Shown: positions 1,790-60,490 of the stretch, in pieces
Layout of the letters: each line of letters begins with the position of its first letter
Numbering within the stretch: the stretch's first letter is position 1
NCBI GenBank assembly: GCA_963769935.1
Contig: CAVYNY010000011.1
Span: forward strand, 352,001 to 416,000
DNA: 64,000 bases
DNA from: an uncultured delta proteobacterium
GTDB lineage: Bacteria > Desulfobacterota > Desulfobacteria > Desulfobacterales > JAFDCJ01
Direction of reading: 5' to 3'
Notes under the pieces: model-generated
What the model was told of the DNA's origin: nothing
What the model saw: the letters and a program-made list of their open reading frames with translations, nothing else
The model's database searches: none
Made by a program: the position numbers and the translations under genes

Positions 1790-1915
1790 GGTTTCAAGGT
1801 TAGGGTGTCAGGTGTCAGTAGCACCGCTGAAACCTTAAACCTTATTCAAACCAATAACTAATAACGGTGGACTTTTTCTCTCCTCAGTCCTCAGTCCTCT
1901 GTCTTCCGTCCTCTG
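1790..1915. repeat. Stacked heptamer repeat tracts (GGTGTCA/TGAAACC, AATAACY, TCCTCAG)
   Basis: Read directly in the gap between the oxidoreductase gene and glpD. Confidence 0.75.
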
Positions 1916-1919
1916 ATCA

Positions 1920-3515
1920 TCAAGGCAACAACTTGTCCGGATTCATGCGCTGATCGGGATCAACATGTTTAAAAACTTCCCGCAGGGTGCTGATGCCGAG
2001 GACTCCTTTTTCGAATGATAAATACGGCCGGTGGTCCCGGCCTACCCCGTGCTGGTGGGAAATAGTTCCGCCGGCGGCAACGATCGCCCGGCTGGCCGCA
2101 TCTTTTATGCGTTGCCAGGCTTCTAAAGTTTGCTCCGGCGATTCCGACAAGTGAAAAATAAAGGTTGTATAGATGCTGGAGCCGCTCGGGTAGACATGTG
2201 ACAGATGCGAAAAAACGTGCCCCCTTTGATTGCCTGCCTGCAATGCTTCGTGGATCGATTTTTCAATGGAATGCATGGCCGGCGTCACTTTATCCCAGGT
2301 GAGGGCCGTCTCCAGTGTATCCACGGCGTAGCCCCGATCCCAGAGCGAATTTCGCAAATACGCTGAGCGAAAGCGGTTTTTTTTCCAGGCCCGGCCCATG
2401 GGCCTTCCGACCCAAACCCCCTTGTGATGCCGAATGATGGTTAACGCGGCGCCGCGAGCGGCAGTTGTTATACGCCGGGAGCCGGTAAAGCCGATCAGGC
2501 ACATGCAAAACTTTCCGTCGACAAGGCCGCGCAGGCCCAGATATCGCCTGAGCAGAGAAATTTGCCTTGCGCTGCCGGCCAGAGCCAGATTGGTCGTTGT
2601 CTCGAGCGGGTTGCTCAGCCGCATCATTGAAAAAGAGATATCCGTTCCCGCGATGCGCTGCACCGCCTTTCGGCCTTCTTCCCACGACGGAAAGAAGACC
2701 CCGTAAACATTGTCTCTTTCCGGCAGAGGGGAGATTCTGACGATTACGTTGGTCAGGATCCCCATTTTGCCCTCCGAACCTAGCACGATCTGGCGCAGGT
2801 CGGGACCGGCGGCTGATGCCGGAAAGGGCGGTAAATTCATAGATCCGCGGGGTGTGAGGATTTCGCCGCCGGCAAAAAGGTCTTCAATTCGGCCGTAGTG
2901 TCCGGACTGCTGGCCGCTGGACCGGGTGACCACCCATCCGCCGAGGGAAGAATATTCGAAGGACTGGGGGTAATGACCGAGGGTGAAGCCACCGCCATTC
3001 AGGTGCTGTTCGAGTTGCGGACCGCGAATTCCGGCTTCAAAGACCGCCAGTCGATTATCGGTTTCCAGGGCGACGAGACGGTTGAGCCGCTCAAGAGACA
3101 GGCTCAGAACCGGGCGTTCGGTTTGCGGCACCGCCAGGTGGCCGACCACGCTGGTGCCGCCGCCGTAGGGGATAACGATGACACCTTGTGCGGCGCAAAA
3201 TTTCAAAAGTTCCCGGACTTCGGCCCCATTGGCCGGTCGGGCCACACCATCCGGAAATCGCTGCAGCGTTCCGCCGCGCAGACCAATCCAGTCGGGCAGA
3301 CTTTGGCCATGGGCGTGGTCAAGTCGTAATCGGGCGTCGAATGAAATCAGGGGATGCGGGGTCAGACGCGATTGCGGTACCCGATCGATAAACTTTGCCA
3401 GGGGATAGTCCGACCGGACCTGTCCGGTTCCTATCAGATCCTGCAAAATTCCAAGAGCTTGCGGCGGAAGATCCATTTTTACATTTTCATCGCCCCAGCC
3501 GTTCCAGCTTTGCAT
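1920..3515 (-). CDS. FAD-binding oxidoreductase, alkyldihydroxyacetonephosphate synthase-like (VAO/PCMH family)
   Basis: IPYGGGTSVVG, GHYPQSFEYSSLGGW, GSEGKMGI and SHQHGVG motifs; AAGGAG RBS upstream. Confidence 0.85.
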   Translation of the reverse strand: MQSWNGWGDENVKMDLPPQALGILQDLIGTGQVRSDYPLAKFIDRVPQSRLTPHPLISFDARLRLDHAHGQSLPDWIGLRGGTLQRFPDGVARPANGAEVRELLKFCAAQGVIVIPYGGGTSVVGHLAVPQTERPVLSLSLERLNRLVALETDNRLAVFEAGIRGPQLEQHLNGGGFTLGHYPQSFEYSSLGGWVVTRSSGQQSGHYGRIEDLFAGGEILTPRGSMNLPPFPASAAGPDLRQIVLGSEGKMGILTNVIVRISPLPERDNVYGVFFPSWEEGRKAVQRIAGTDISFSMMRLSNPLETTTNLALAGSARQISLLRRYLGLRGLVDGKFCMCLIGFTGSRRITTAARGAALTIIRHHKGVWVGRPMGRAWKKNRFRSAYLRNSLWDRGYAVDTLETALTWDKVTPAMHSIEKSIHEALQAGNQRGHVFSHLSHVYPSGSSIYTTFIFHLSESPEQTLEAWQRIKDAASRAIVAAGGTISHQHGVGRDHRPYLSFEKGVLGISTLREVFKHVDPDQRMNPDKLLP

Positions 3516-3696
3516 GGTCTTACTCCTTAATTAATCCGCCCTGAAAGATGTCACTTTCAGGGTTGAAAATTGTTCTTTGAAAATTGAAAAAAGAAGTTAG
3601 ATCGAAGGTCCGGCGGATTAATTATCTTATGCTGCGCATTTAGATTTTCGCTGAAATCTGTTAAATTCATTTTGATGCATCCTCGTATGAAACTTC

Positions 3697-3909
3697 ACCT
3701 GAACGAAACAGCGAACCGCAGAACAGCAGAATAACGAACCGCAGAATTTCGAAGGGTGGTTTCGCTACGCTCAGTCTTTTTTATAAAAAAGATAGAATAC
3801 CTTCCCTCGATATTCGATATTCGATATTCATTATTCGCTTTTAAAGAGTTTCCTCTTTCGATCAGACTGGCCGTTTTTTTGGCCGGCGGCTGGGCTGACA
3901 CCTGAAACC
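3697..3909. repeat. Composite intergenic element with CGATATT heptamers and a CTGACAC/CTGAAAC end
   Basis: GAACCGCAGAA repeated, (CGATATT)3, and a 3' part homologous to 36738-36800 in opposite orientation. Confidence 0.7.
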
Positions 3910-3921
3910 CACACTGGTCAT

Positions 3922-4104: not shown

Positions 4105-4278
4105 ATTATTGTCAAGTTAGTTTCTTTACAACGTATAAAGCGTGATTAAATTTTAGACGAATTGTGTTCAAACTCGGATAAGCTCTTAAAGCAATTAGAA
4201 ATTTCAATAATTATACGGGCCCATAACCAACACGATGATTATCCATAGCCAGGCTGAGATAAATCAACGGGGGGGAGC

Positions 4279-5082: not shown

Positions 5083-7053
5083 ATGGGACTAAAAAAGGAT
5101 GTCCTCGACATCGTGACTGAACTGGGCGGAATCAGGACTGCGCAAGCCGCAGATAAACTATTCGAACAACGCGTGGCAGCGGATCAACTTGCTAAATTAA
5201 ACCGGGTAAAAAACGAGGCCGTGCGGCTGAAAATAGCCAACGCCATCGTTCTTTGCGACCCGGACAGTGTGTTTGTCGATACCGGCTCAAATGAAGACCG
5301 TCAATCAATCATAAGCCTGTCCCTTGAAAAAGGCGAGGAAAAAACCCTTGCCATGGAGAACCACACCATCCACTTTGACCTCAAGCAGGAGCAGGGCCGG
5401 ATTATCGACCGCACATTTTACATCAGCAATAAAGGCGAAGAGGTCAATTCCCTGGCTAAAGCCATGGAGCGCAGTGAAGCCGTCAAAGATATCCGGGAGA
5501 AAATGGCGGGCATCATGCGGGGAAAAACAATGATGATCGGCTTTTATCTGCGCGGTCCGGTGGGGGCGCCGGCCTCGAATCCGGCGGTTGAAATTACCAG
5601 CTCAACCTATGTCATGCACAGTGCCGATATTCTGTATCGCAATGTCTATGCGGCTTTTGACCAGGAGGTCGAAAAGCTGGAACATTTTTATACCAACATT
5701 CACAGCGAAGGGTTGAATCGGCCCGAAGATCTTCCCAATGCCAGGGTATTCATGGATCGCAGCCATCTGACCACCTACAGCTTCAATTGCACCTATGCCG
5801 GCAATACGTTGCTGATGAAAAAAGGAAATCACCGCTTCTCCGTCGACCGTGCGGTCTACGAGAAAAGGGCCGAGCAGTTGGCCGAGCACATGTTTATCAC
5901 CGGCATCGAAGGACCCGGCGGACGGACAACCTGGATGATCGGCGCGGCCCCGAGCGGATGCGGCAAGACCACGTCGGCCATGGCCGGAGATCATTTTGTG
6001 GGTGATGACCTGGCGCAGTGCTGGATAGCCGCAGACGGTTCCATTCGATCCATCAATCCGGAGAAAGGCATCTTCGGCATTGTTGAGGATGTGAATTGGG
6101 AGGGCGATCCGAAACTGATGGAATGTCTGCGCAAACCGGGTACCGAGGTCATTTGGTCCAACGTATTGATCGATGAAAACGGGGTGCCCCAGTGGGTCGG
6201 CAACGGTGAGGAGCCGCCGCCCCAAACGGGCGTCAATTTCCAGGGGCCGTGGGAGCAGGGCATGGTGGACGAAAACGGCAAAAAGATACCCATGTCCCAT
6301 CCGAATTCGCGCTGTACCCTGGACAACAGGGCGCTGGGTAATTATTCCGATGAGAATGAAAACGGCGCGGGCGTTGAAACCCGCATCATCACTTACAGCG
6401 GCCGCGACAGTGATACCATGCCGCCCGTATGGGTTGCCAAGACCCCGGATGAAGGCGTTGTCATCGGCGCCTGCATTGTGTCGGCCGCCACTGCCACGGA
6501 AGTCGGCGCTACCGGTGTTCGCCGCCAACCCTGGGCCAATGCCCCGTTTATACCGGGATCTCTGGGAGACTACATGGCTTCGCAATTTGAATTTTTCAAC
6601 AGCAGCAAAATCGCGCCGGACAAACAGCCCATTTTGGCCGGACTAAATTACTTCCTGACCCATGAAGCCCGGGGCGGAGATTCCAAGAAGCTGCTCGGCG
6701 AGAAAAAGGATGTCAAGGCCTGGATGGCCTGGCTGGAGCGACGGGCCCACCGCGAAGTCGATGCGCTCGATACGCCCATCGGGTATTTGCCCAAGTATGA
6801 AGATTTAAAGCAATTGTTCAAGTCTAAAATCGATAAACAGTATCCCGCAGACCTTTATGAAAAGCAGTTTTCGCTTTATATCGACAAGATCATCAATAGA
6901 ATCGATATGCAGGTTGAAGCTTACGGCAAGGAGAAGAATATTCCCCCAAGGCTTTTCGACATTTTGAAGCAACAGCGGCAGGAGCTTGAAATTTTAAAGG
7001 ATAAATATGGTCCGATCGTTGCCCCGAAGCAGTTGGCAGCGGCAGATCTTTGA
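5083..7053 (+). CDS. pckG: Phosphoenolpyruvate carboxykinase (GTP)
   Basis: YAGN, PSGCGKT, VGDDLA, INPEKGIFG and HPNSR motifs. Confidence 0.92.
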   Translation: MGLKKDVLDIVTELGGIRTAQAADKLFEQRVAADQLAKLNRVKNEAVRLKIANAIVLCDPDSVFVDTGSNEDRQSIISLSLEKGEEKTLAMENHTIHFDLKQEQGRIIDRTFYISNKGEEVNSLAKAMERSEAVKDIREKMAGIMRGKTMMIGFYLRGPVGAPASNPAVEITSSTYVMHSADILYRNVYAAFDQEVEKLEHFYTNIHSEGLNRPEDLPNARVFMDRSHLTTYSFNCTYAGNTLLMKKGNHRFSVDRAVYEKRAEQLAEHMFITGIEGPGGRTTWMIGAAPSGCGKTTSAMAGDHFVGDDLAQCWIAADGSIRSINPEKGIFGIVEDVNWEGDPKLMECLRKPGTEVIWSNVLIDENGVPQWVGNGEEPPPQTGVNFQGPWEQGMVDENGKKIPMSHPNSRCTLDNRALGNYSDENENGAGVETRIITYSGRDSDTMPPVWVAKTPDEGVVIGACIVSAATATEVGATGVRRQPWANAPFIPGSLGDYMASQFEFFNSSKIAPDKQPILAGLNYFLTHEARGGDSKKLLGEKKDVKAWMAWLERRAHREVDALDTPIGYLPKYEDLKQLFKSKIDKQYPADLYEKQFSLYIDKIINRIDMQVEAYGKEKNIPPRLFDILKQQRQELEILKDKYGPIVAPKQLAAADL

Positions 7054-7056
7054 AAC

Positions 7057-7233
7057 GCCGGGACGCTGGGAGGCTGGGAAGCTGGGAGGCACGGTCAACG
7101 TAAAACGTTTTTTCCAGCGGCTTTCCATCTCGGCAATTTTCTGCTGCAAGATATTTATCCTGCGGGGGCAGAGGCCTAATTTAACACACCGGTGCCTTGG
7201 CCTCCAGGCTTTCCAGCTTCCAAGCCTCCCGGC
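7057..7233. repeat. Inverted octamer arrays (GCTGGGAG)n ... (GCCTCCCA-like)n
   Basis: Four units per arm, mutually complementary, around a ~110-bp core. Confidence 0.8.
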
Positions 7234-7296
7234 ATTTTTAGAAATTCGATAAATTAATCTTCCCTTAAACCACATTCACGATCTCGCGAGGATTGC

Positions 7297-8553
7297 TTGC
7301 CGCCTGAATACCGCAAATCCATTATTAAAGTGATTTTAAGCCGCCGTATGTTGGTGGCTTTTATGATGGGGTTTTCCGCCGGTCTTCCCCTTCTTTTGAC
7401 CATGGGGGTGCTGCAGGCCTGGATGAAAGAAAAAGGCGTTGATCTGACCTGGATCGGCATGATCGCCCTGGTTCAGCTTCCCTATACCTGGAAATTTATC
7501 TGGGCGCCGGTGCTGGACCGGTTTACCCTGCCTTTCTTGGGACGACGCCGGGGATGGCTGCTGGTGGCGCAACTGGCATTGATCGGCGCCATCGTACTGC
7601 TGGGATATTCCGACCCGGTAGAAAATGTGCCCATGATGGTTGCGGCCGCCATCCTGGTGGCTTTTTTCAGCGCTAGCCAGGATATCGTCATTGATGCCTA
7701 TCGCCGGGAAGATCTGGCGGATGAAGAATTGGGACTGGGTTCGTCCATGTATATTTACGGCTATCGCCTGGGAATGCTGCTGGCCGGCGGCGGCGGCATG
7801 ATCCTGGCGGATCGCATGGCATTTGCCAGCGTATATCTGATCATGGCCGCCTGCATGCTGCCGGGGGTTCTCACTACGCTGTTGACGCCGGAACCCGATA
7901 TAAGTACCGGCCCACCCCGGACCATGAAAGAGGCGATCGTCAATCCGCTGGTTGAGTATTTCAGCCGCCATAATGCGGTCTGGATACTTGTATTTATATT
8001 GCTTTATAAAATCGGCGACACCATGGCGGGTGCCATTACCACCCCTTTTTATCTGGACATTGGCTTTACTAAAACCGACATCGGCGCCGTTGTTAAAGTA
8101 TTCGGCACCGGTGCCACCCTGGCTGGAGCTTTTTTGGGCGGTATCATCCTGCTGAAGGTTGGAATAAACCGCAGTCTTTGGATCTTTGGTGTTCTGCAGG
8201 CCTTGTCGACGGCCTGCTTTGCCATCCTGGCGCAAATCGGTTTCAGCATCCCGGCTTTGTCCGGTGTGATTGCATTTGAGAACTTGAGCAGCGGTATGGG
8301 GACCGCGGCCTTCGTAGCCTTTATGGCCAGCATCACCAACAAAAAATTTACCGCCACCCAGTATGCCTTGCTGACCAGTCTCATCGGGATACCCAGGGCG
8401 CTGGCATCCGCCGTGACCGGTTTAATGGTCAAGCACCTCGGGTGGGTAAACTTTTTTATCTTCTGTGCTCTGGTGGCAATTCCCGGCATGCTGCTGTTGT
8501 TCAAATTTGCACCCTGGAATTCCAGGGCTGTAATTGATGGCGAAACATTATAG
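7297..8553 (+). CDS. ampG: AmpG-family muropeptide MFS transporter
   Basis: GFSAGLP, KFIWAPVLD, GRRRGW, SASQDIVIDAYR and ATQYALL motifs. Confidence 0.9.
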   Translation: MPPEYRKSIIKVILSRRMLVAFMMGFSAGLPLLLTMGVLQAWMKEKGVDLTWIGMIALVQLPYTWKFIWAPVLDRFTLPFLGRRRGWLLVAQLALIGAIVLLGYSDPVENVPMMVAAAILVAFFSASQDIVIDAYRREDLADEELGLGSSMYIYGYRLGMLLAGGGGMILADRMAFASVYLIMAACMLPGVLTTLLTPEPDISTGPPRTMKEAIVNPLVEYFSRHNAVWILVFILLYKIGDTMAGAITTPFYLDIGFTKTDIGAVVKVFGTGATLAGAFLGGIILLKVGINRSLWIFGVLQALSTACFAILAQIGFSIPALSGVIAFENLSSGMGTAAFVAFMASITNKKFTATQYALLTSLIGIPRALASAVTGLMVKHLGWVNFFIFCALVAIPGMLLLFKFAPWNSRAVIDGETL

Positions 8554-8574
8554 GAATTAGGACACGGATCAACA

Positions 8575-12152: not shown

Positions 12153-12239
12153 AGTTGGCCGGTTGGCCCGTTTGCCGGTTAGCCGGTTTACCGAAACCGT
12201 TCCCCGGGTCAACGGGCTAACGGGCAAACCGGCTCAACT
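12153..12239. repeat. Inverted octamer arrays (GGTTRGCC)n ... (GGCWAACS)n
   Basis: Five plus four units; overlaps the cobB stop codon. Confidence 0.8.
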
Positions 12240-12983: not shown

Positions 12984-13000
12984 GGATACATTACACCTGA

Positions 13001-13042
13001 AACCCATAACCCGCACCGTGCAACCCGTACCCCGCAACCCGT
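13001..13042. repeat. Heptamer array (AACCCGY-like) x6
   Basis: AACCCAT AACCCGC ACCGTGC AACCCGT ACCCCGC AACCCGT. Confidence 0.75.
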
Positions 13043-13881
13043 TACAGTTCAAACTCCATCTCACCGCTCACGCCGACACATTCCAGGTTGAGACTCCGGC
13101 CATCGATCCAATCCCGGCATTCTTTGACTATCTTATCCATCTCTTCGTCGGTGCGTTCCTGGTTTAGATGAAACAATCCCAGTTTTTTTACGGCAGCCTT
13201 AACGGCCAGATCAAGGGCATCGGTGTAGACGGAGTGCCCCCAGTCCATGTAGAATTTATATTCTTCGGGGGTGTATTCGGCATCATGGATAAGAAGATCC
13301 ACACCATCGGCAAATTTCAGATAATCGTTAAAGGCAAGACCGCCGGGGTGAATATATCCCAGTTCATTGTCGGTTAAAAAAACAAATTTTTTCCCGTCTT
13401 CAATAAATTTATATCCGCTGCCGCCGTTGGGATGGCTGATCGCAATGGGAACAACGGTGACCGAACCGATTTCAAACTCCATTGGACATGCATCCAGATA
13501 AGATATTTGAGCGGTAATATCCGAATATTTAATCGGGAAGTTCGGGGGAGCCATTATTTTGGACAAAATGGTTTCAACGAATTTACTGTGGAAGGGGCAG
13601 CGGTGCATGTGAATGGTGAATTCCTCAAAATAAAGCGGTTTGAAGAATGGAAACCCCATCAAATGGTCCCAGTGGGCATGGGTGAAAATAAAATTGATAT
13701 CGCAGCATTTTTCCCTGGCCAGTTTATTGCCGAGTCTTCGAATCCCGGTTCCGGCGTCAATGACAATGGTTTCACCGCTTTTTGTCAGAATTTCCACACA
13801 GGTCGTGTCACCGCCGTACTTTAAATATTCCTTTCCTGAAACCGGGATGGATCCTCTTGAGCCCCAGATTTTGATGTTCAT
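13042..13881 (-). CDS. MBL-fold metallo-hydrolase
   Basis: WGSRGSIP, DAGTG, HAHWDH and WGHS motifs. Confidence 0.88.
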   Translation of the reverse strand: MNIKIWGSRGSIPVSGKEYLKYGGDTTCVEILTKSGETIVIDAGTGIRRLGNKLAREKCCDINFIFTHAHWDHLMGFPFFKPLYFEEFTIHMHRCPFHSKFVETILSKIMAPPNFPIKYSDITAQISYLDACPMEFEIGSVTVVPIAISHPNGGSGYKFIEDGKKFVFLTDNELGYIHPGGLAFNDYLKFADGVDLLIHDAEYTPEEYKFYMDWGHSVYTDALDLAVKAAVKKLGLFHLNQERTDEEMDKIVKECRDWIDGRSLNLECVGVSGEMEFEL

Positions 13882-13986
13882 GCTTACCCTTTTAAATCTC
13901 TATAGGCGGATAGTCAGGCTGCGCTTCAGTAGTTTATAGAAAAAACAAATCACGGATTTATCGCAACTTACGGGTTTTGGATTGTT

Positions 13987-14465
13987 CTAAGATCCCTTTT
14001 GCTCCGTCTTTCCATAAAACGTATGCCAGATGCCCTCCTGAGACCATTGCCTGAGGATTTTAACCGGCTGGCGGGCCAGCCGGTCGACTACATCTTTCGC
14101 CTCGCTGCGCATAAGGCCGGAAAGAATAAAGTGCTTTTTGGCCAGAAAACCACTGGAATTTATCAGATGCTGCATTACATCGTAGTGATGCGAAAATTTC
14201 CGTGTTCGAAAGTGTTGAATACTTCGCCCAGCCACTGATGGTATGTCATGTGATAGGTATCGACATAGTGTAATTGCGGCCGGCGCTGCAAAAGACTTTC
14301 GATTTGCCGGTCGGCCGCACTGGAGAAAAACAGAATCGACTCGTTTTCTTCTTCCCAGTTGCCGATAAAGTTTTCCGGTAACATCCGGTTTTCCGGTTTC
14401 AGGCGGCCGGTGAGATAGTAGATATAGAGATCCTCATAGGGACCGCTACCGGCGTTTGGGCGCAT
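13987..14465 (-). pseudogene. Internally deleted PrmA-like (L11 methyltransferase) gene
   Basis: N-terminal part (PYEDLYIYYL..FIGNWEEE) joined out of frame near 14185 to a methyltransferase C-terminus (HYDVM..FILSGLMRS); the SAM-binding core is absent. Confidence 0.55.
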
Positions 14466-15182: not shown

Positions 15183-15225
15183 ATTACCCCCTCCGTTTTG
15201 GTTGAATAGTTGATTGGTTGACTGG

Positions 15226-16185
15226 TCAACCAAGTTGCGCGTTTAATAGAATTTTTAGGTGATTTGCCGCCAATTCGGGCAGACGCTTCAGCGCATATCC
15301 GCCTTCCAGGATGGAGACAACTCTTCCTTTTGAATATTGCCGGGCCATTGCGACGACATTTTGCATAATCCAGGAGAAGGCCTCAGTTGACAGCTTAATA
15401 TCAGACATCTCATCGTCCACGTGGGCGTCAAATCCGGCCGAAACCAGAATGACTTCCGGTTTGAATGCGTCGAATGCCGGAATCAGGTCTTTTTGAATCA
15501 GTTGTTTGTACTCCGCATCTCCCTGGCCCGGCAGCACCGGTGTGTTTTTTGTGTAACCATACCCGAAATCCCTGCCGTTTTCAAATTCACGGCCGGTTCC
15601 GGGATATGCAAAAGAGGGATGCTCATGGATTGAGTAATAGAATACCGTTGAGTCTCCCTCGAAGATGTGCTGGGTACCGTTGCCGTGATGGACATCGAAA
15701 TCGACGATTCCTACCCGTACGATGCCGTAGCGGTTTTGCAGATAGCGGGCGGCGATGGCCACGTTGTTAAAGTAGCAAAATCCCATGGCTTTGTTCACTT
15801 CGGCATGGTGTCCCGGCGGGCGGACCGCGCAAAAGGCGTTGTCCAATTTTCCTGCCATCAGCCGGTCGACCACATCCAGGATGCCGCCAACCGCCAGTAA
15901 GGCGATTTCATAAGTTTGCGGGCACATCTGATTGTCCGGACTGTCAAACGTGCTCTCCCCGTTCCGGCAGGCTGCTTCAAATCGCTGGACATACGGCCTG
16001 TCGTGAACCAGCTCGATCCATTTCATCTCCGCCGGGCTGGCTTCGATCAGGATGAGATTCGAAAGCAATCCGGCGTCTTTGATGCCCTGATAGATGCGGG
16101 AAAGCCTCTCAGGAACTTCCGGATGGTAGCGGCCGGTCTTGTGCAGCTGATACCTCTCGTCGTGTAAAAATCCTGTTTTGTTCAT
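15226..16185 (-). CDS. Zn-dependent histone-deacetylase-family protein (AcuC/AphA-like)
   Basis: HPE..RL, RPPGHHA, GFCYFNN, DFDVHHGNGTQ, SAGFDAH and LEGGY motifs. Confidence 0.93.
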   Translation of the reverse strand: MNKTGFLHDERYQLHKTGRYHPEVPERLSRIYQGIKDAGLLSNLILIEASPAEMKWIELVHDRPYVQRFEAACRNGESTFDSPDNQMCPQTYEIALLAVGGILDVVDRLMAGKLDNAFCAVRPPGHHAEVNKAMGFCYFNNVAIAARYLQNRYGIVRVGIVDFDVHHGNGTQHIFEGDSTVFYYSIHEHPSFAYPGTGREFENGRDFGYGYTKNTPVLPGQGDAEYKQLIQKDLIPAFDAFKPEVILVSAGFDAHVDDEMSDIKLSTEAFSWIMQNVVAMARQYSKGRVVSILEGGYALKRLPELAANHLKILLNAQLG

Positions 16186-18924: not shown

Positions 18925-19027
18925 CCTACAGTTCCAAAGCAGAACTCGCTGTTGATAGTCCATTAGGGCGTTTTTTTATTATAAAGGTTTCAGGTTTCAG
19001 CACCTAACTTTTGCGTCACCTAACAGC

Positions 19028-20725: not shown

Positions 20726-20876
20726 GGGCTATTAGTTATTGGTTATTAGTCATTGGTTCCTTGGTGATTTCAGATAATATTAAAAATCTTTCCTGATAAA
20801 CTGACTTTTATTGATTTTTTAAAGTATAGAAATCGAAAACCAGAAAGCGCTGAGAAAGACGGTTGATAGAGACATC

Positions 20877-22272
20877 ATGAAAATCCTTTTATATAATTCG
20901 CTGAATCGACAGAAGGAAGAATTTATCCCGCTGCACGAGGGGCAGGTCGGACTTTACACCTGCGGACCGACCGTTTACAACTTTGCCCACATCGGCAACC
21001 TGCGAACTTATATCTTTGAAGATATTTTAAAGCGGGTTTTGCGGTACAACGACTACCGGGTTAAGCATGTTATGAATATTACCGATGTCGGCCACTTAAC
21101 CGGTGATCGGGACATGGGCGAAGACAAAATGGAAAAAGGCGCCGCAGCGCGAAGGCCGCAGCGCCTGGGAAATCGCCGAATTTTACACCCGGGCCTTTAA
21201 GGAGGACCTCGCCCGGCTGAATATTCTGCCGCCGGATATCTGGGTCAAGGCCACCGATACGATCGAGGATCAGATTGCGCTGATCAAAACGCTGGAAGAA
21301 AAAGGCTACACGTATCAAACCAGCGACGGAATCTATTTTGATACTTCCAAGTTTGCGGACTACACCAAGCTTTCCCATCAGGATATCGAATCCCTGCAGG
21401 AAGGCGCGCGGGTGGAAAAAAATCCGGAAAAACGCAACCCGACCGATTTTGCCCTGTGGAAATTTTCGCCCGCCGACATCCGGCGCCAGATGGAGTGGGC
21501 ATCTCCCTGGGGGATTGGGTTTCCGGGCTGGCATATCGAATGTTCGGCCATGAGTATGAAATATTTGGGCGATCAACTCGATATTCACTGCGGCGGCACC
21601 GACCATATCAATATCCATCATACCAATGAAATCGCCCAATCCGAGGCTGCCACCGGCAAGAAGTTTTTTAATTTCTGGATGCACGGCGCCTTTTTGATTA
21701 TCGCCGGCGGCAAGAAGATGGCCAAAAGCGAAGAAAACTTTCTGACGCTGGAAAGCGCCTTTCTTAGGCAAAATTTAAATCCACTGGTCTACCGTTTCGC
21801 GACCTTTCAAACCCACTACCGGAAACCCATGGAGTACAGCGAAGAAAGCGTCCAGGCCTCCCGCAACGGGTTGCAGCATCTGCAAAACCAGGTGCGGCAG
21901 GTGACCCAAAACAGCGCCGGCCGGGACGGAACCATCAATGAAGCCTATAAAAACAAATTTCAGGAAGCGGTTAACGATGATCTGAACATGCCCCGGACCA
22001 TGGCAGTCGTGCAGGAGATGTTGAAAAGCACTATCAGTGATGCTGAAAAACATGCAACCATTATGGATTATGACCGGGTGCTGGGTCTCAGCCTCGATCA
22101 GGTCGCCGCACCGCAAGCACTGCCGGCTGAAGTTCAAAAACTGGTTGAAGACCGCAGCGCAGCCCGGGCCGCCAAGGACTGGTCCGGATCCGACCGGCTG
22201 CGCGATGCGATCCAGGATTTGGGTTACACCGTGCAGGATACGAAAGAGGGTATGAAGGTCATTAAAAAATAA
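20877..22272 (+). CDS. cysS: Cysteine--tRNA ligase, one +1 frameshift near 21143 (probable sequence error)
   Basis: CGPTVY and HIGN in ORF 20877..21200; [16 protein letters not shown] and KMAKS in ORF 21103..22272. Confidence 0.93.
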
Positions 22273-23482: not shown

Positions 23483-23562
23483 CATCCAACCCAAATCAGA
23501 CGCGGCATAATAGACAGACCTATTTCTGACTAAAACCTAACCCGGCTAAACCGGAACAAAAT

Positions 23563-23637
23563 GCCACCAAGACACAAAGACACAAAGGGAAACTTTTGAT
23601 TTAATGTTTCAGCTTTGCGTCTTTGTGTCTTGGTGGC
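23563..23637. repeat. 25-bp inverted repeat of 8-mer units (GACACAAA)
   Basis: GCCACCAAGACACAAAGACACAAAG / CTTTGCGTCTTTGTGTCTTGGTGGC, one mismatch. Confidence 0.85.
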
Positions 23638-23705
23638 GAAAATGATTTTTCATAATACGCAGTGAAAATATGATTAGCACTAAATACTTTTATTAAGGAA
23701 AAACC

Positions 23706-24485: not shown

Positions 24486-24570
24486 AAAATAAATTTTGGT
24501 ATCAGGTGTCAGTTTTCAATTATCTGACGGAGTTGTAGAATTTTTTATTAGTGAAGATCATTAGCTCAAA

Positions 24571-24702
24571 AAATTACAAGCACCAAATAACAAAAAACAA
24601 ATAATGTCCAAATTCCAAATTTCAATGACCGAAAAAAGTTTTGAATTTTGGTCATTGTGATTTGAGATTTATTTGGAATTTGAGTTTTGTGATTTGGAAT
24701 TT
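24571..24702. repeat. Inverted heptamer arrays (CAAATWM)n ... (KWATTTG)n
   Basis: Same family as 56928-57195. Confidence 0.8.
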
Positions 24703-27818: not shown

Positions 27819-27994
27819 AAGTTTCGCCTAATTTTTATCGCGGCGGAAAGCCGCTCTCACACATTCTTATATCGAGTCCTTAAATAATTACATCTCAGTG
27901 CCCTCTGTGCCTCTCTGTGGTGAAAACAGTATTTTGTCAATAGTTCGGCGCTATTCTAATACATTAGCGTATTTCCGAATACTTGTACTTAGTG

Positions 27995-32448: not shown

Positions 32449-32597
32449 AATTGAATATTGAAAATTGGTGGAATTCTGTCCTTTTAATTTTTTGCAAAGA
32501 TCCGGTCTTCTTTCCCATTTGCCGTATTCAGTTTAGGCACTTAAAATTATCGATAGCATACCTTAAATATTCAATTTTCAATCGACAATATTCATTC
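32448..32597. repeat. ATTGAAT/ATTCAAT inverted heptamer element
   Basis: Same family as 43105-43213 and 44609-44748. Confidence 0.7.
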
Positions 32598-32599
32598 CC

Positions 32600-36684: not shown

Positions 36685-36831
36685 AGAGTCGCGGTGCGCG
36701 CGTCACGGGTTGTGGGTTACAGGATACAAAGACCAAAGGTGTCCGGCGTCAGCCAATTTGCTGGCCGCGGAGCAGCCGGCCTGATAGAAGCGTAAACTCC
36801 TTTAGAACATAAAAATGATATTAAGCCTAAT

Positions 36832-38471: not shown

Positions 38472-38624
38472 GGGCTCACTCAAAAATAACTTCACATTTT
38501 ATACGCCGATGCATCTCCTGCGGCTGCGTTGCGAAAGCTCGGAATATCCAGATATTCCTGCGTTTTCACGCCTTGCCGCCAGAGCGCCTCAACTAAAACT
38601 GTGAATTAATTTCTTCGTGAACCC
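38472..38624. mobile_element. Non-autonomous MITE (153 bp) with imperfect ~30-bp terminal inverted repeats and TAA flanks
   Basis: GGGCTCACTCAAAAATAACTTCACATTTTA ... TAAAACTGTGAATTAATTTCTTCGTGAACCC, flanked by TAA at 38469-38471 and 38625-38627. Confidence 0.65.
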
Positions 38625-38630
38625 TAAGGG

Positions 38631-42416: not shown

Positions 42417-42740
42417 TAGTTAATAGTTGATAGTTAGTAGTTGATAGTTAGTAGTTGATAGCAGATAGTTCATAGTTGATAGGTAAAAGGCTAAAGGCTA
42501 AAGGTAAAAGGTTAAAGGCAAATGGTATTACTTTACGGTATGCGCTTTGCTCTATGCTCCTTACCCGCTCACCTTCCCAAATTCTTATCTTCTTCTTATC
42601 CTCTCTCCTTTCCGCCTTCCTACCCTCTCACTTTCTGATCTTCTTATCTTCTAACCTTCCCACCATCTTATCTTCTCGCCTTCTCTCTTTTATCGTCTGT
42701 CCTCTGACCTCTGTCTTCTATATCTATACTATGCCCTTTG
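42417..42740. repeat. Stack of at least five short-period arrays between glnB and glnA
   Basis: (TAGTTGA/TAGTTAG)~9, (GYWAAAG)5, TATGCKC, TCTTATCT-type 8-mers, (TCTGWCY)3. Confidence 0.85.
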
Positions 42741-42742
42741 CT

Positions 42743-43096
<354 letters not shown>

Positions 43097-43104
43097 CTAT
43101 GTTA

Positions 43105-43213
43105 TTGAATATTCAAGATTGCAAATTGAATATTTGTGGATGTCGCCTTGCTCTGTCCTTTTTAAAATGGAAACGATCCTTAAATATTCAATATTCAACC
43201 TAAAATATTCAAT
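43105..43213. repeat. ATTGAAT/ATTCAAT inverted heptamer element
   Basis: ATTGAATATTCAAGATTGCAAATTGAATATTT ... AAATATTCAATATTCAACCTAAAATATTCAAT. Confidence 0.8.
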
Positions 43214-44583: not shown

Positions 44584-44608
44584 TTTTTTAATTTCTCCCC
44601 CCCTCTTC

Positions 44609-44748
44609 GATTGAATATTGAAGATTGTCAATTGAATATTTAAGGTATTCTATCGATTTATTTTTCTTCCCTTAACTCCACTTTTAGAAGATTTGAATCA
44701 GATTAAAAATCCTTAATTCGTCATTCGACAATTGTCATTTGTCATTCC
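44609..44748. repeat. Heptamer element with an ATTGAAT left arm and a GTCATTY right arm
   Basis: Fills the glnD-amtB gap. Confidence 0.7.
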
Positions 44749-44750
44749 AT

Positions 44751-47390: not shown

Positions 47391-47567
47391 TAAAATTTTC
47401 CCCGCCTGATTACTCCGCCCTGAAAATCAGAGACATCCGGTTTAGAAAACACCAAATGGTCAAATTGAACCTGATGAAAATTTGCACTGTTGCCCGGACG
47501 GATGAATTGCCTTTTTCAAAGAATCCTATCCAATCTCGAACATGCTATCTTTCAGCGCGGATTAATC

Positions 47568-52799: not shown

Positions 52800-54400
52800 G
52801 CGTTAAAGACCTGCCGTGGCAGATTGTATGGGCTAAAGATAAATGTACCCTTTGCGGCAAATGCACTGCCGTGTGTCCCGTCAACGCGATTGAATTGGGG
52901 GTGTTTCGCAAACGCGAACTGCAACCGCCGGTGGACGGATTCATAGTGCCGCCCACCAGTGTCTATAAAGCTTACTACGGTATCCGCCAAAGGACCGATC
53001 CGGCCTACAAGTGTGTCGGCTGTGCGATGTGCAACCTGGTCTGTCCCAACGACGCCATCGCGCCGGCGCGGGCCGATGAAACCGACAAATTTCGCTTTCA
53101 TGTCGATCGGGGCGGACAGCCGCGCCGCCGGGGCGGCCGGCGCAATGTGCAGGGCGGAATCCTGGATCGGTTAAAATTTATCCGCATTTCAATGCTGACC
53201 GACCCCGCCCTGGATGCAGGACGCCACGAATTTGAATTGCGCACGCTTCTGGGACGGGTGCTGCCCCCCGAAGAAAACCTGAAGTTCCTGCAGAATAACG
53301 GCTGGATCCCGCCGGTCAGAGAAATCTACCCCCTGATCATCGGCAGCATGTCTTTCGGCGCGCTGTCGCCCACGATGTGGGAAGGGCTTCAAATGGGGGT
53401 GGCCTATCTCAACGAGGAGCTCGGCATGCCGGTGCGTATCTGTACCGGTGAAGGCGGCTGTCCGCCGCGGCTATTGCGCTCGCGGTTTTTGAAGTATGTC
53501 ATTTTACAGATCGCCAGCGGCTATTTCGGCTGGGATGAAATCATTCATGCCCTGCCCGAGATGAAGGAGGATCCCTGCGCCATTGAAATCAAGTACGGCC
53601 AGGGGGCCAAGCCCGGAGACGGGGGCCTGCTGATGTGGTACAAAGTCAACAAGCTGATTGCCGCCATCCGGGGGGTGCCGGCCGGGATCAATCTGCCCAG
53701 TCCGCCGACCCACCAAACCAAGTATTCCATTGAGGAATCCGTTGCCAAAATGATTCAGTCCATGTACATGGCCTGGGGTTTCAGGGTGCCGGTTTATCCA
53801 AAAATATCGGGCACTTCAACCGCTCTGGCGGTTTTAAACAACCTGACCCGCAATCCCTACGCGGCAGGACTCGCGATCGACGGTGAGGACGGCGGTACGG
53901 GCGCCGCATACAACGTATCCATGAATCATATGGGACATCCCATTGCCAGCAACATCCGCGACTGCTACCTGAATCTTGTCAATCTGGGCTTCCAGAATCA
54001 GGTTCCGCTGTTTGCCGGCGGCGGGGTCGGCAAAACCGGAAATCTGGCGGCCAATGCCGCGGCCCTCATCATGCTGGGCGCCAGCGGTATTCAAATCGGC
54101 AAATACATCATGCAGGCGGCGGCCGGATGTCTGGGATCGGAGTCGGATCGCTGCAACATCTGCAATATCGGTCTTTGCCCCAAAGGGATTACCTCCCAGG
54201 ATCCACGCCTGTATCGGCGTCTGAATTCCGAAGATGTGGCCCAGCGGGTGGTGGATGTGTACCTGAGCTTTGATACTGAATTGAGAAAAATAGTGGCCCC
54301 CCTGGGACGCTCCACATCTCTGCCGATCGGGATGTCGGATGCGCTGGGTATCGATGACTATAATGCAGCGGAGAGACTGAAGATTAAGTATGTGGTGTGA
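52763..54400 (+). CDS. Glutamate synthase FMN-binding subunit with 4Fe-4S ferredoxin motifs
   Basis: Two CxxCxxCxxxCP, MSFGALS, TGEGG, EIKYGQGAKPG.GG, GGTGAA and C..GITSQD motifs. Confidence 0.9.
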   Translation: MLPDRPINPSTLSVKDLPWQIVWAKDKCTLCGKCTAVCPVNAIELGVFRKRELQPPVDGFIVPPTSVYKAYYGIRQRTDPAYKCVGCAMCNLVCPNDAIAPARADETDKFRFHVDRGGQPRRRGGRRNVQGGILDRLKFIRISMLTDPALDAGRHEFELRTLLGRVLPPEENLKFLQNNGWIPPVREIYPLIIGSMSFGALSPTMWEGLQMGVAYLNEELGMPVRICTGEGGCPPRLLRSRFLKYVILQIASGYFGWDEIIHALPEMKEDPCAIEIKYGQGAKPGDGGLLMWYKVNKLIAAIRGVPAGINLPSPPTHQTKYSIEESVAKMIQSMYMAWGFRVPVYPKISGTSTALAVLNNLTRNPYAAGLAIDGEDGGTGAAYNVSMNHMGHPIASNIRDCYLNLVNLGFQNQVPLFAGGGVGKTGNLAANAAALIMLGASGIQIGKYIMQAAAGCLGSESDRCNICNIGLCPKGITSQDPRLYRRLNSEDVAQRVVDVYLSFDTELRKIVAPLGRSTSLPIGMSDALGIDDYNAAERLKIKYVV

Positions 54401-54414
54401 GTTGGAGAGAACCC

Positions 54415-56764
54415 ATGTCTAACCGAGAAATAAAAGGCAGCGCAACCTTATACAAGATTTCCGGCCGTGTCGCCGGACAACGTGTTGACTCCAGGATTAT
54501 TGAAGAGCAGATTCAAACGGCGGTGGAACAGGGCCACCGGAGACTGCAGATCGAGGCTTTCGGCCAGCACGGCATTGGGGGACGATTGTGGCGGGCCGGC
54601 AATGAAGCGGTTCACCTTGAAATCGTCGGTCAGCCCGGACAACGGGTCGGATCCATGGGATTTGCCAACACCTCCATCGAGGTCCTCGGACCGGCATCCG
54701 ATGATGTGGGATGGCTCAATGCCGGCGCGGAGATTGTAGTGCACGGCAATGTCGGCAATGGATGTGCCAACGCCATGGCCCAGGGCAAAATTTATGTTGC
54801 CGGCAACCTCGGTGCGCGGGGCATGACCATGACCAAGCACAACCCGCGCTTCGATCCGCCGGAACTCTGGATACTGGGTTCGGTTGGAGATTACTTCGGT
54901 GAATTTATGGCGGGCGGCGTAGCCGTGGTCTGCGGCCATGAAGCTCAAAACAAAGAAAATATTCTCGGCTACCGGCCATTGGTGGGAATGGTCGGCGGCA
55001 AAATATTCTTCCGCGGATCTCACGGGGGGTACAGCGAATCGGATGCCAAGCTGGTTACCATCGGCGATGATGACTGGAACTGGCTGCTTGAAAACCTGCG
55101 GCTCTTCCTGGATCGCATCGGCCGATCCGAGCTGGCGGCTCCGTTTTCAGAGCGCAGCCGCTGGCAGTTGCTTGTCGCCCGCTCCCCTCAGGAAAAAATC
55201 GCCCGTCCGATGCGCTCGTTGCAATCGTTTAATTCGGAAGTCTGGCAAAAGGAACTCGGCCAGGGCGGCCTTATTGGAGATCTCTCCGATCTGGATCGCA
55301 GTCAGATCGCCCTGATCACTTCGGGATATCTGCGGCGGTTTGTTCCGGTTTGGGAAAACCGCAAGTACGCTGCACCCTGCGAGGCGACCTGTCCCACAGG
55401 AATACCGGTGCAGGAACGCTGGCGATTGATTCGCGCAGGCCGGGTCGATGAAGCGGTCGACCTGGCGCTTGCCTACACGCCGTTTCCGGCATCGGTGTGC
55501 GGATACCTGTGTCCCAATTTGTGCATGCAGTCATGCAGCCGCCGGATTGCGGCGATGGCACCCGTGGATACCACCCAGCTGGGCAAGGCCAGCATCAATG
55601 CCAGAGCTGCCGGAACTGCCGCCCGAATCGGACAAGAAAATAGCCGTTATCGGCGGCGGACCGGCCGGTATATCCGTTGCCTGGCAGCTGCGGCTGAAAG
55701 GACACCAGGTTGTGATTTATGAAATGGCGCCGGATATCGGCGGTAAATTCAGCCGCATTATTCCTGCCAGCCGGATTCCCAAAGAAATCATTGCCGCCGA
55801 ACTGCAGCGGGTGAAAGAGGTCTTGCCCCATGTCCATCATCAGAAACCTCTCGCCAAACAGGACATCAAACAACTGCGCGAAGATTTTGATTTTGTGGTG
55901 ATTGCCACCGGCGCCCAAAAGCCCAGAACCTTACCGATACCGGGCAATGAGCGGGCGGTGACGGCGCTGGAATTTCTCCAAAAGGCCAAAGCCGACACGG
56001 CCAAAGTCGGCGAACAGGTGGTTATTATCGGCGCCGGCAATGTCGGCTGCGATGCAGCCACCGAAGCCCAGCGACTCGGTGCCCGGGAGATCACCCTGTT
56101 GGATGTGCAGGAGCCGGCATCTTTCGGCAAGGAAAGACAGGCGGCCGAAGCCATCGGTGCCAAATTCAGATGGCCGGTCTTCACCCGGGAGATTAGCGCC
56201 GATGCGGTCATCCTCAAAACCGGCGAGAAAATTGTCGCCGACACGGTGATCATATCCATCGGCGATGTGCCGGATCTTGAGTTTCTACCCGATGATGTGA
56301 CCACCGAAAAAGGCTTCGTGAAGGTCAACGATCATTTTTTAACCGCCGATCCCAAAATATTTGCCATCGGCGATGTCGTCAGACCCGGACTTTTGACCGA
56401 TGCCATCGGCGCCGGGCGCATCGTCGCCCAGACGATCTGCGATATCTTAGAGGACAAGCCCCCGGAAGTCCGCCGACGTGAAATGATCGATCGCAACCGG
56501 ATTACCCTGGAATATTTTGATCCCCGGATTACCGAATACAGTGATCTGGATCACTGCGGGTCCCAGTGTTCATCCTGCGGCGCCTGCCGCGACTGCGGCA
56601 TCTGCGTGGCGACCTGCCCCCGGCATGCCATCAGCCGGCAAGAATCGGATGGCGCGGATTATGAATATGTGGTAGCTGAAGATCTTTGCATCGGGTGCGG
56701 ATTTTGCGCCGGTGCCTGCCCGTGCGGGGTATGGGACCTGGTGGAAAATACGCCGATCGGATAG
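54415..56764 (+). CDS. Glutamate synthase GXGXG domain fused to a GltD-like FAD/NAD(P)H oxidoreductase and ferredoxin; one +1 frameshift near 55603
   Basis: GQHGIGG and GDYFGEFMAGG, then PCEATCP and CPNLC, then IGGGPAG, GAGNVGCD and C-terminal 2x4Fe-4S motifs. Confidence 0.85.
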
Positions 56765-56819
56765 GCGCCTGCGCCTAATTTTATGCTATAGATACAGAAT
56801 TGTGTTGATTAAATTCGAT

Positions 56820-57243
56820 GGTTTCAGGTGAGGTGTCAGAATCGGCGGCAGTTATCTGGTGTTCCGTGATGGTGGATCAGAAATGCCGGCACGTTTTAAA
56901 TTCAAAAATCAACAAAGGAAAAAGTCCAAATTCCAAGCACCAAATTCCAAATAAATCCCAAATTACAACAATTAATGACCAAAACAGACTAAACCAGGAA
57001 AAGGTCGCTTTTTTATTTATTTTTCCGTGTTTTGGAATTTTGAATCTTGGTCATTGTAATTTGTTTGAGCCCGCCCTGGTGCGACGTGCTTGGGTTACAC
57101 TTTTAACCTGCTCTGGTTTGGGCGTGAATGCAGTAAATACTTCAAGCGGCAAATCGGTCTGGGCCAGGGATTTGTCATTTGGAATTTGTGATTTTTAGCA
57201 GACCCGGCGACGCCGGAGGCGCTGGCACCTGACACATGAAACC
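56820..57243. repeat. Nested repeat elements between the glutamate synthase operon and purF
   Basis: Outer GGTTTCAGG..GGTGTCAG / CTGACACATGAAACC, inner CAAATTC/GAATTTG arms, and a 100-bp insert at 57068-57167. Confidence 0.75.
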
Positions 57244-57305
57244 GATATCTCAGCTCAAGTGCCTGAAATTTTAAAGCATTTCTATATCAGAGGAGTCTAA
57301 ACATT

Positions 57306-58715: not shown

Positions 58716-58844
58716 AAGATTCCCACTTTACATGAAGATTCGGGTTCAAGCGACATTCGATATTCTTACTGCTTGCCCTTTTAGGAAATGCGGTATAGAA
58801 TTAGATGTTTGATTCTTGGCGATTAACAACGGCCGGAGGACGAT

Positions 58845-59354
58845 ATGCTCGAATCGCGATATCTGAAAGATAATATCGAAAATATTCAAAAGCTTTTGGC
58901 AATTCCCGCCCTTAGAAATTTTGAAACCAAAAGTCTGCAGAAACTGCTCAGGTTAAGCAAAATCAGGGAATACGACGACGGTGAAATGATCATCAAGGAA
59001 GGTGATCTGGATCCGTGGCTTTATTTCATGCTTTCCGGCAAGATCCGGGTCAGCAAAGAAGAAATGGAGATCAACACCATTGACAAGAAGGGTGAAATCT
59101 TCGGTGAGATGCGAATTATCGACAGCCTGAAACGATCGGCTTCGGTTTATGCGGTCGGCAAAACCATCTGCCTGGCTGTTGATACATCTGCCAAAAACCG
59201 GATCTCCGATCAGGATCCCATGGATGAGAAGCTGGATTTTTTGCTCTTATTATACCGCATATTTGCCGAATATATGTCGATCCGTCTGCGGGCCACCAAC
59301 GAAGAACTGATTACCGCCAAAAAGAAAATCAAGCGTCTGCTCACTAAAATATGA
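58845..59354 (+). CDS. Stand-alone cyclic-nucleotide-binding domain protein
   Basis: IIKEGD..LYFMLSG..GEIFGEM..RSASVYA; no HTH. Confidence 0.85.
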   Translation: MLESRYLKDNIENIQKLLAIPALRNFETKSLQKLLRLSKIREYDDGEMIIKEGDLDPWLYFMLSGKIRVSKEEMEINTIDKKGEIFGEMRIIDSLKRSASVYAVGKTICLAVDTSAKNRISDQDPMDEKLDFLLLLYRIFAEYMSIRLRATNEELITAKKKIKRLLTKI

Positions 59355-60370
59355 CCCTGACGAAAACCGTAGCCTTTTCGAAAAATTCCGCCAACCTGTT
59401 TTTCCATATCCTCACAAAATGCAATCTCAAATGCCGCCATTGTTACATCAACCCCGCGCAGCATGGCAAAGACACCCTGCCTCTGGCAACCATTCAAGCC
59501 TGGCTGGAGGTATTTTCGCCTGACAGCGGGTCAAAGAATCTCATATTTCTAGGCGGTGAACCCACTCTGCACCCGGATTTGCCGGCCGCCGTAAAACATG
59601 CCCGCCGCCTGGGATTCGGTTCCATCACGATTGATACCAACGGCTATCTGTTTCATGACATCCTGTCAGAGGTAGCTCCTGAAGAAGTGGATTATTTCAG
59701 CTTCAGCCTGGACGGCGCCACCCGCGAAACCAACGATCGGAATCGGGGGAATGGGTCATACGCTGCCTGTCTTGACGGTATTCGCAGGGCAACTGCGAGG
59801 GGCTTTACGACCAGTTTAATTTACACGGTCAGCCGTTCCAATATCCATGAGCTTGAGATGATGCCTGATTTACTGGATAAATTGGGTGTCGACCGGTTCT
59901 TCATCCAGGTTATCGGTCTGCGGGGAAAATCGGCCCTGACAGAGGATGCATCTGATATTCATAAATCGCCGCAGGTTTCCAGAACCCAATGGCTGGATGT
60001 CGTTTCCAGGACTGCGCAGATGATCGCGGACCGTGGGATTATGGTTACCTATCCGAAAGTGTTCTTAGGTCCGGAAGAAAAATTTGAATGTGCCGGCATC
60101 GTGGCGGACAATTACTTTGTTTTCCCCAACGGCCGGGTGTATCGCTGCCCGCTGTGTGAGGACTTTCCGATCCACAGCCTGTGCTTTCGGGAAAATCAGC
60201 TGCTGCCGACCGCCAAACTCAACGAACAGGATTTTTTTCAACTTGATATTCCTGAAGGCTGCGTCATGAATAAGCTGATCCAACCGTATAATATCCGCTA
60301 CGACGAAGTGGGGCGGCCGGAGTTCAAGATTGCGTGCTGTTTGCTCAAGGAGGAAATTAAGCCTGGGTGA
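59351..60370 (+). CDS. Radical SAM protein with C-terminal Cys cluster
   Basis: CNLKCRHC, GGEP, DTNG and SLDG motifs; C-terminal CAG..YRCPLC..CVMN..CC. Confidence 0.9.
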   Translation: MTLTKTVAFSKNSANLFFHILTKCNLKCRHCYINPAQHGKDTLPLATIQAWLEVFSPDSGSKNLIFLGGEPTLHPDLPAAVKHARRLGFGSITIDTNGYLFHDILSEVAPEEVDYFSFSLDGATRETNDRNRGNGSYAACLDGIRRATARGFTTSLIYTVSRSNIHELEMMPDLLDKLGVDRFFIQVIGLRGKSALTEDASDIHKSPQVSRTQWLDVVSRTAQMIADRGIMVTYPKVFLGPEEKFECAGIVADNYFVFPNGRVYRCPLCEDFPIHSLCFRENQLLPTAKLNEQDFFQLDIPEGCVMNKLIQPYNIRYDEVGRPEFKIACCLLKEEIKPG

Positions 60371-60429
60371 AAAGGGCCTTCATTAAATTTTTTCGATAAA
60401 CAACTTAGGTCTGCTTGATTGCAGATACC

Positions 60430-60490
60430 GGAGTAATGGGGTATTGGAGTGCTGGATTTTTTTCATTACCCCATCACCCCACCACTCCAA
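60430..60490. repeat. Inverted octamer arrays (GGAGTAAT-like)n ... (ATTACYCC-like)n
   Basis: GGAGTAAT GGGGTATT GGAGTGCT GG ... CATTACCC CATCACCC CACCACTC CA. Confidence 0.78.

Follow-up and report, generated by a model that had tools for sequence, protein, structure and literature searches.

What are the short tandem repeats that occupy one gene junction after another in the genome of an uncultured member of the Desulfobacterales? The question is raised by a stretch of 64,000 nucleotides (G000:C11:352001-416000, termed here the window) of this 8.0 Mb, 41-contig genome. Using Tandem Repeats Finder (TRF), an inverted-repeat finder and direct reading, arrays with a period of 7, 8 or 9 bp were located in 20 of its intergenic gaps, between positions 1786 and 60489; the initial annotation, made from the letters alone, had put the number at about 20. 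These arrays are very probably the arms of small palindromic cassettes that have lost a four-helix-bundle gene (PF05635/TIGR02436) or a GxxExxY gene. Those of the window are emptied, eroding cassettes, and not plain microsatellites.

Facing arm pairs are present in 13 of the 20 gaps: 10 are clearly matched, one loosely (3707-3837) and two are of mixed family (42417-42720 and 44610-44747), with cores of ~8 to 220 bp. The layout of array, core and inverted array described initially holds for these gaps and not for the seven others (12994, 15198, 18980, 20730, 27893, 36690 and 50597), which have a single arm. Folding of eight sites yielded six that are more stable than at least 199 of 200 shuffles, the weaker ones being 32449-32598 and the mixed pair 44606-44750. 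As had been stated, no cargo gene or transposase was found in any array-bearing gap of the window, and the two open reading frames (ORFs) overlapping arms, 42476-43108 and 56818-57198, have no Pfam or NCBIfam match.

Genes enclosed by the arms

The genome contains seven PF05635 genes and two GxxExxY genes, one intact and one broken. Arrays of the window families stand beside these genes, with a different unit at each: the arm family of 12154-12236 also flanks the four-helix gene at C11:329909, and that of 60430-60489 the one at C9:239319. In blastn comparisons with filled loci, the window arms 10365 and 23563 match GxxExxY loci, while most 7-mer arms match four-helix loci.

This association extends to the genus and beyond. 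Among 164 PF05635 matches in the genus, 96 were examined and 95 gave an ORF; 70 of these 95 genes are surrounded by inverted arms, with a period of 7 in 53 cassettes. Among 1570 ordinary genes with 95-200 codons, only 10 pass the same arm test. A broad set of 80 loci from GTDB genomes, reduced to 76 by the removal of four with short flanks, provides 55 enclosed four-helix genes in 17 named phyla (49 with period 7), against 2-3 passes with mismatched flanks. The genus has 28 GxxExxY matches; the 21 near full length were tested, and 16 of them are enclosed by arms of period 8-10. The association with four-helix-bundle (TIGR02436/Avd-like) and GxxExxY genes, which the initial annotation had mentioned, is therefore borne out by counts.

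Each cargo lineage has its own arm unit. A protein tree (69 rows, few columns) groups the four-helix proteins by arm unit. Only some cargo clades occur with the same unit at multiple loci unrelated to one another; this argues better for a movement of filled cassettes. When filled cassettes are compared with the genome by blast, up to ~170 matches cover the arms and inner borders, only one or two fall inside the gene, and a few part-deleted intermediates are seen. To note, in L048, L064, L068 and L071 as compared to L036, a single upstream host gene is followed in different genomes by four-helix cassettes of two clades and units: one filled cassette has been replaced by another.

Of 19 loci with long flanks, 18 have the cargo gene in the direction of its upstream neighbour. 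The cargo leaders share no 7- or 8-mer in 10 or more cases, and several arms adjoin the start directly. From this shared direction and the motif-free leaders, we infer that transcription of the host operon would read through into the filled copies and so express them. A shared promoter was considered and set aside, as no common motif was found among the cargo leaders, a comparison that did not include the competence genes themselves.

Filled, part-deleted and bare alleles of one junction

No PF05635/TIGR02436 gene is enclosed in the window itself, and the initial annotation had proposed comparing filled and empty orthologous gaps in close relatives. The convergent gap 32449-32599, resolved in 14 genomes, provides every state. 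G022 and G005 possess a four-helix-bundle gene between 7-mer arms. G010 has the same allele minus 356 bp, the 3' end of the gene being kept, and G004 and G009 match the filled allele better in reverse orientation; these three alleles are remnants of the filled type. The window and G015 harbor another family, G012, G017 and G003 a third one, and four genomes are bare, with gaps of 13-34 bp. Cargo loss thus occurs by internal deletion, cores can flip between arms, and one junction holds different families in different genomes. As the window family differs from that of G022, its cassette reflects a replacement or an independent arrival and is not a direct remnant of the G022 allele. The G022 cargo protein scores above the TIGR02436 cut-off and matches PDB 2RLD; a profile search also returns PDB 2GSC, a homopentamer according to PMC4990558.

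A similar allele turnover is observed at seven other early gaps of the window and in the gln operon. At 7055-7233, the same family is present in four relatives and a different one in three, while two are bare; at 56765-57305, inspection by eye revealed assorted inserts in 16 of 18 genomes and a bare gap in two.

Polarity and order of the arms in the genome

Genome-wide, TRF reports 1177, 576 and 334 arrays of period 7, 8 and 9, against 23, 34 and 6 in a 60-bp block shuffle. A second, custom finder yields 1403 arrays against 11, of which 1322 lie outside the called genes (a simple caller was used, whose genes cover 74% of the genome). The arrays fall into ~40 unit families, with 170 fitting none, and the arms alone occupy 52 kb. 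Fourteen arrays of the same families lie within called genes (e.g. C10:579889 and C18:284593-284738), in long ORFs and apparently in frame. Inverted pairs at most 300 bp apart number 86, whereas 20 label permutations gave 14.4 on average and never more than 23.

The arms are polar. Among 1193 arrays, the inverted partner is found on the majority side of the family in 404 and on the other side in 5, a side that these data themselves define; for the majority of arms, no partner was detected. Gene geometry is a check that does not depend on how polarity was defined: the opening arm lies past a same-direction stop codon in 293 cases versus 16, and the closing arm ahead of a start in 157 versus 20. 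A stop codon lies no more than 10 bp away for 205 of 559 outer edges of arms and for 7 of 431 inner edges. First partners closer than 350 bp number 365, with 3 on the wrong side; between 350 and 700 bp the counts are 22 and 4, and beyond 700 bp no consistent excess over the wrong side was found in the genome-wide first-partner distances.

In gaps with several arms, the order is open-close in 158 cases, open-open in 66, close-close in 68 and close-open in 6, for which the shuffle mean is 93. The near absence of the close-open order indicates nesting or overwriting of cassettes, and not a serial arrangement; it should be added that a polarity towards the nearest gene would by itself also yield this order. 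Families F14, F24, F27 and F39 mix opposite polarities and were omitted from the edge, target-duplication, arm-order and inner/outer-age tests. Arm pairs of mixed family are common.

Elements of the window

From the proximal to the distal end, the window elements are the following.

1786..1848: two-armed 7-mer cassette, core ~10 bp (fold z -2.8)
1849..1922: two solo 7-mer arms of families other than the preceding one; the second adjoins the stop codon of gene 1920-3515
3681..3910: pair of 7-mer arms, loosely matched (3707-3746 and 3807-3837), within a longer repeated shell
7055..7233: two-armed 8-mer cassette, immediately 3' of the pckG stop codon
10337..10560: GxxExxY-type two-armed 9-mer cassette bearing outer inverted ends; closing arm interrupted by a 31-bp tandem duplication
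12154..12236: two-armed 8-mer cassette (fold z -4.4)
12994..13042, strand -: solo opening arms of two 7-mer families, directly past the stop of gene 13042-13881
15198..15226: solo 8-mer arm
18980..19000, strand +: solo 7-mer opening arm
20730..20758, strand +: solo 7-mer arm past the stop codon of a ubiB-like gene
23532..23670: GxxExxY-type two-armed 8-mer cassette (arms 23563-23587 and 23613-23637) in a repeated shell (fold z -10.5)
24498..24702: solo 7-mer arm, then a two-armed 7-mer cassette (24572-24702); fold z -5.1
27893..27919: solo 9-mer arm
32449..32599: two-armed 7-mer cassette in a convergent regulator-kinase gap
36690..36727: degenerate solo 7-mer arm ahead of the dinB start codon
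42417..42720: stacked arms from multiple families between glnB and glnA, all opening arms facing all closing arms from opposite sides
43104..43213: two-armed 7-mer cassette between amtB and glnB, of F01, the most frequent family (fold z -7.1)
44610..44747: mixed cassette, two related 7-mer families around a common core type, adjoining the glnD stop codon
50597..50626: solo 7-mer arm close to the glnE start
56820..57243: nested element, degenerate outer 7-mer arms (56820-56839 and 57222-57243) around an inner cassette (56919-57196)
60430..60489: two-armed 8-mer cassette, nearly coreless (fold z -4.5)

The 27893 arm has no blastn match to filled loci; by eye, its unit resembles those around the GxxExxY genes L124 and L136. 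In the inner cassette 56919-57196, the closing arm is split by a 101-bp insert (57068-57169), which has ~6 matches in the genome and is missing from other copies of the cassette. The shell formed by 3681-3700 and 3835-3910 has ~100 genome matches on its right part; it surrounds 9-mer cassettes elsewhere, is itself found within 7-mer arms and belongs to some of the youngest copies (97%).

Change between close strains

Contigs of public sequencing runs, 96-98% alike to the window in long pieces, illustrate recent changes. RNA runs are represented by contigs only, in which cuts and strand are not visible; X8 crosses some cassettes (5737-7368). Arms gain and lose whole units: X8 has one extra 8-bp unit at 7090 and 18 extra nt of units at 12171, and the near-identical X2 contig has two 7-bp units fewer at 42424. 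Cassettes are deleted imprecisely, leaving solo arms. In X5, 234 bp of the 10337 cassette are missing between 6-bp direct matches, with a short stub left, and 18958-19027, with the 18980 arm, is skipped; in X8, the 20730 arm is partly deleted and 29 nt stand in place of window 1764-1922. The 12994 arms are missing in X5, X8 and X13, and since G022 also has them, this difference is a loss. A further X5 joint, 56889-57286, is a hint at most, having only 35 nt, 85% alike, on one side. The most plausible reading of solo arms is that they remain from cassettes deleted imprecisely.

Relation to known systems

The elements closest in protein content are the ORF-bearing intervening sequences (IVS) of 23S rRNA in Coxiella and Leptospira. 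As described in PMC4990558, they have the same protein family (S23p, PF05635) between terminal inverted repeats, with a patchy distribution and no transposase, and the long stem formed by such repeats is also present here. Conversely, the elements reported here stand at mRNA operon junctions, have tandem-unit arms specific to the cargo lineage, exist in hundreds of gene-less copies and include a second cargo, GxxExxY. Neither the window nor 20 of the 80 broad loci searched gave an Rfam match, and the neighbours are protein genes.

REPINs and their RAYT proteins (PMC3116915) offer another parallel, being described as gene-less extragenic hairpin doublets and singlets, of which a genome has several classes, and whose repeat also borders a rare, single gene; over-represented inverted hairpin doublets in extragenic DNA are likewise observed here. 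The partner protein in the present case is not a Y1 tyrosine transposase, and the arms are degenerate and tandem, with frayed outer ends, in elements that are nested and not serial. The Ssn nucleases with their NTS/SRM hairpins, in the description of PMC11893778, also combine a small gene flanked by its cognate repeat, hundreds of free copies and many protein-repeat pairs. They differ in their proteins and in having repeats that are not tandem arrays, and cleavage in the present system is only predicted. In its working, the system resembles a REPIN/RAYT or Ssn/SRM partnership with an IVS protein at its base, yet belongs to none of the three.

RAYT-like, GIY-YIG and DUF559 genes were rejected as partners, as none was enclosed by arms in the loci inspected: eight of 11 PF01797 loci, viewed by eye, lack these arms, and none of four of the seven PF01541 loci is enclosed by an arm pair, one broken locus adjoining an element. 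The DUF559 endonuclease genes C8:93859-94173 and C8:104603-104932 (G000) have G/C-rich hairpins of their own, which recur nearby.

Similarity with miniature inverted-repeat transposable elements (MITEs) lies in terminal inverted repeats, non-autonomy and multiple copies, all found here. Classical MITEs generate a target-site duplication and have sharp ends, and their parent element has a transposase gene framed by these ends; the filled copies described here instead carry four-helix or GxxExxY genes. Target-site duplication gave no clear signal, 263 cassettes following the shuffled control except for 10 versus 4.2 at 7 bp or more, in a test whose power is limited by frayed ends and by some true ends lying beyond the arms. 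With simple sequence repeats the arrays share a unit number that varies between strains, but they have partner arms and a flanking sequence common to the copies.

The arms have the same geometry as the heptamers reported in PMC4692102 for Xanthomonas and Nostoc, which form runs of ~4 units just past the stop (sense) or ahead of the start (antisense), and inverted pairs. The accounts in PMC4692102 and, for Beggiatoaceae, PMC4679880 present one unit per organism with G-quadruplex or translational roles; in the accessible sections of both, the repeats have no link to a cargo and their origin is left open. A full-text literature search, covering few subscription journals and no supplements, returned no link of PF05635/TIGR02436 or GxxExxY to tandem-repeat arms. 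The parts (rRNA IVS, heptamer repeats and REPINs) are known separately; their link did not appear in the literature covered.

This link ties two large families of unknown function to intergenic heptamer repeats. It can be tested, since a predicted cognate unit comes with each protein, and it concerns hundreds of operon junctions reshaped by arms, glnD-amtB-glnB-glnA included. The window contributes one junction with the full series from filled to bare.

How the cassettes may spread, and rival explanations

Beyond their origin, the route of spread can be proposed only tentatively, as a possibility somewhat short of an even chance: cassettes would be copied as DNA hairpins into gene junctions, helped in trans by the cargo protein. 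The ring-forming four-helix protein would bind the repeats of its own unit and the GxxExxY nuclease would cut those of its own. Host recombination or repair, and not a classic transposase, would write in the copies, which would land just past a stop codon or within an older cassette, overwriting its interior. Taken as a whole, the explanation by emptied cassettes and cargo-assisted hairpin copying is evenly balanced. One dispersal mechanism could be common to all unit families, as the initial annotation proposed from the shared architecture. A wider version, in which a pan-bacterial, transposase-free selfish DNA uses a four-helix ring or GxxExxY nuclease that recognises its own unit of 7-10 bases, homes to the DNA following stop codons and writes over older cassettes, is somewhat unlikely; if true, the heptamer repeats of bacteria, so far unexplained, would share one origin, and nature would offer a library of proteins matched in specificity to their repeats.

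Several observations weigh against this explanation. Binding, cutting and insertion by the cargo proteins are predicted activities, and we know of no catalytic activity of the four-helix protein. Most empties are old, only 24 of 289 having another copy at least 90% alike, and many belong to families whose cargo gene is absent from this genome. No case of a young insertion facing a clean empty site turned up, and the sole polarised strain change (12994-13042) is a loss. Inner arms were the younger ones in 16 cases versus 9 (p=0.23). No replication-strand bias was detected (20 versus 19, with a weak GC skew in the assembly). Finally, most filled copies of a clade lie at orthologous loci with shared flanking genes; the agreement of arm unit and protein tree is consequently weakened as proof of co-evolution and partly reflects plain vertical descent.

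Could the cassettes spread through RNA instead? In such a route, the arms would pair in the operon transcript as in 23S rRNA IVS, RNase III would cut, and an Avd-like four-helix ring with a borrowed reverse transcriptase would reinsert the product. PF05635 is described as homologous to Avd, a protein of diversity-generating retroelements (PMC10053308), and RNase III as cutting out the S23p-bearing IVS (PMC4990558); the arms adjoin stop codons, the stems have a median of 46 bp with 77% paired, and the genome has 10 reverse-transcriptase matches. By coordinates, none of these 10 is near the seven four-helix genes, and the window has no reverse transcriptase. Pairing on an RNA strand should leave a G-T excess, and a weak one appears in the broad filled set (738 versus 656, p=0.03, from over-long alignments with a median of ~190 nt, 67% paired). 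It is absent from 142 empties (346 G-T versus 316 A-C, p=0.26), which also show no folding advantage of the sense strand (80/142), and from the noisy alignments of the genus filled set (623 versus 627). Core orientation is random relative to transcription (23 versus 29), and neither the window nor any tested locus lies in rRNA. The RNA route is therefore unlikely. The initial annotation had left the choice between cargo-less members of a mobile or of an RNA-processing system: the filled, part-deleted and bare alleles at 32449-32599 suit the former, whereas RNA processing gained no support.

A passive role of the cargo, with cassettes riding insertion sequences (IS) or MITEs, being exchanged among strains through homologous recombination at conserved junctions, and decaying afterwards, appears quite unlikely. 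In its favor, G007 has six PF05635 matches of identical score, and in the four that were retrieved, a common unit with 99.8% likeness precedes an IS91-family transposase; moreover, the youngest empties are alike beyond the arms, and the frequency of mixed-family pairs would be expected. The IS91 link is nevertheless missing at all five other IS91 loci checked, so that IS91, found in G007 only, was rejected as a general carrier, and no listed cassette of the genome contains a transposase. Passive transport also leaves unexplained why 55 of 76 four-helix genes keep matched arms across phyla and why the period is tied to the cargo family. In G007 L307:2002-3300, to note, the four-helix gene has an opening arm only and lies directly upstream of the IS91-family transposase. 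Host regulatory elements under selection at operon junctions, be they terminators, processing sites or binding sites of translational regulators, would account for the tight placement at stop and start codons and for the strong hairpins at six of eight folded sites, and such a role has been proposed for the Beggiatoaceae heptamers (PMC4679880). This is very unlikely, since the same junction holds other families or nothing in relatives, arms are missing in strains 96-98% alike, and one design recurs in ~40 unrelated units. Ordinary slippage, with an inverted layout arising by chance, is hardly credible: it explains the unit-number changes at 42424, 7090 and 12171 between close strains, but not the fixed polarity with partners on one side, the non-repetitive cores and shells common to copies, or the cargo genes between the same arms. 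Slippage is refuted as a full explanation and edits arm length only. Of the situations that the initial annotation had named as fatal to its proposal, i.e. arms that never enclose cargo, no presence/absence polymorphism and plain slippage behaviour, none applies.

Other features of the window

The housekeeping genes of the window include pckG, cysS, a zinc ABC transporter, ribonucleotide reductase, glnA-glnB-amtB-glnD-glnE and glutamate synthase. Two of them, cysS (20877-22272) and the ribonucleotide reductase gene (28058-30552), are each broken into two ORFs, probably by frameshift errors. At 55605, the window has one base more than the X2, X5 and X8 contigs, whereby gene 54397-56764 becomes two overlapping ORFs; this extra base is probably an assembly error. 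X5 and X8 skip 422 bp (13967-14390), with loss of part of ORF 14175-14465.

Other repeats are interspersed with the arms. A non-periodic 31-bp inverted repeat, 87% complementary, at 60884-60985 has 2-3 genome matches. A MITE-like element with terminal inverted repeats and ~90 genome matches lies at 3528-3640, with a related copy near 47406-47523; the X5 contig skips 3540-3651. The ~160-bp element at 38469-38627 has short terminal inverted repeats and ~80 genome matches, the best being 98% alike: it is a conventional MITE that has been active recently and has no relation to the arms.

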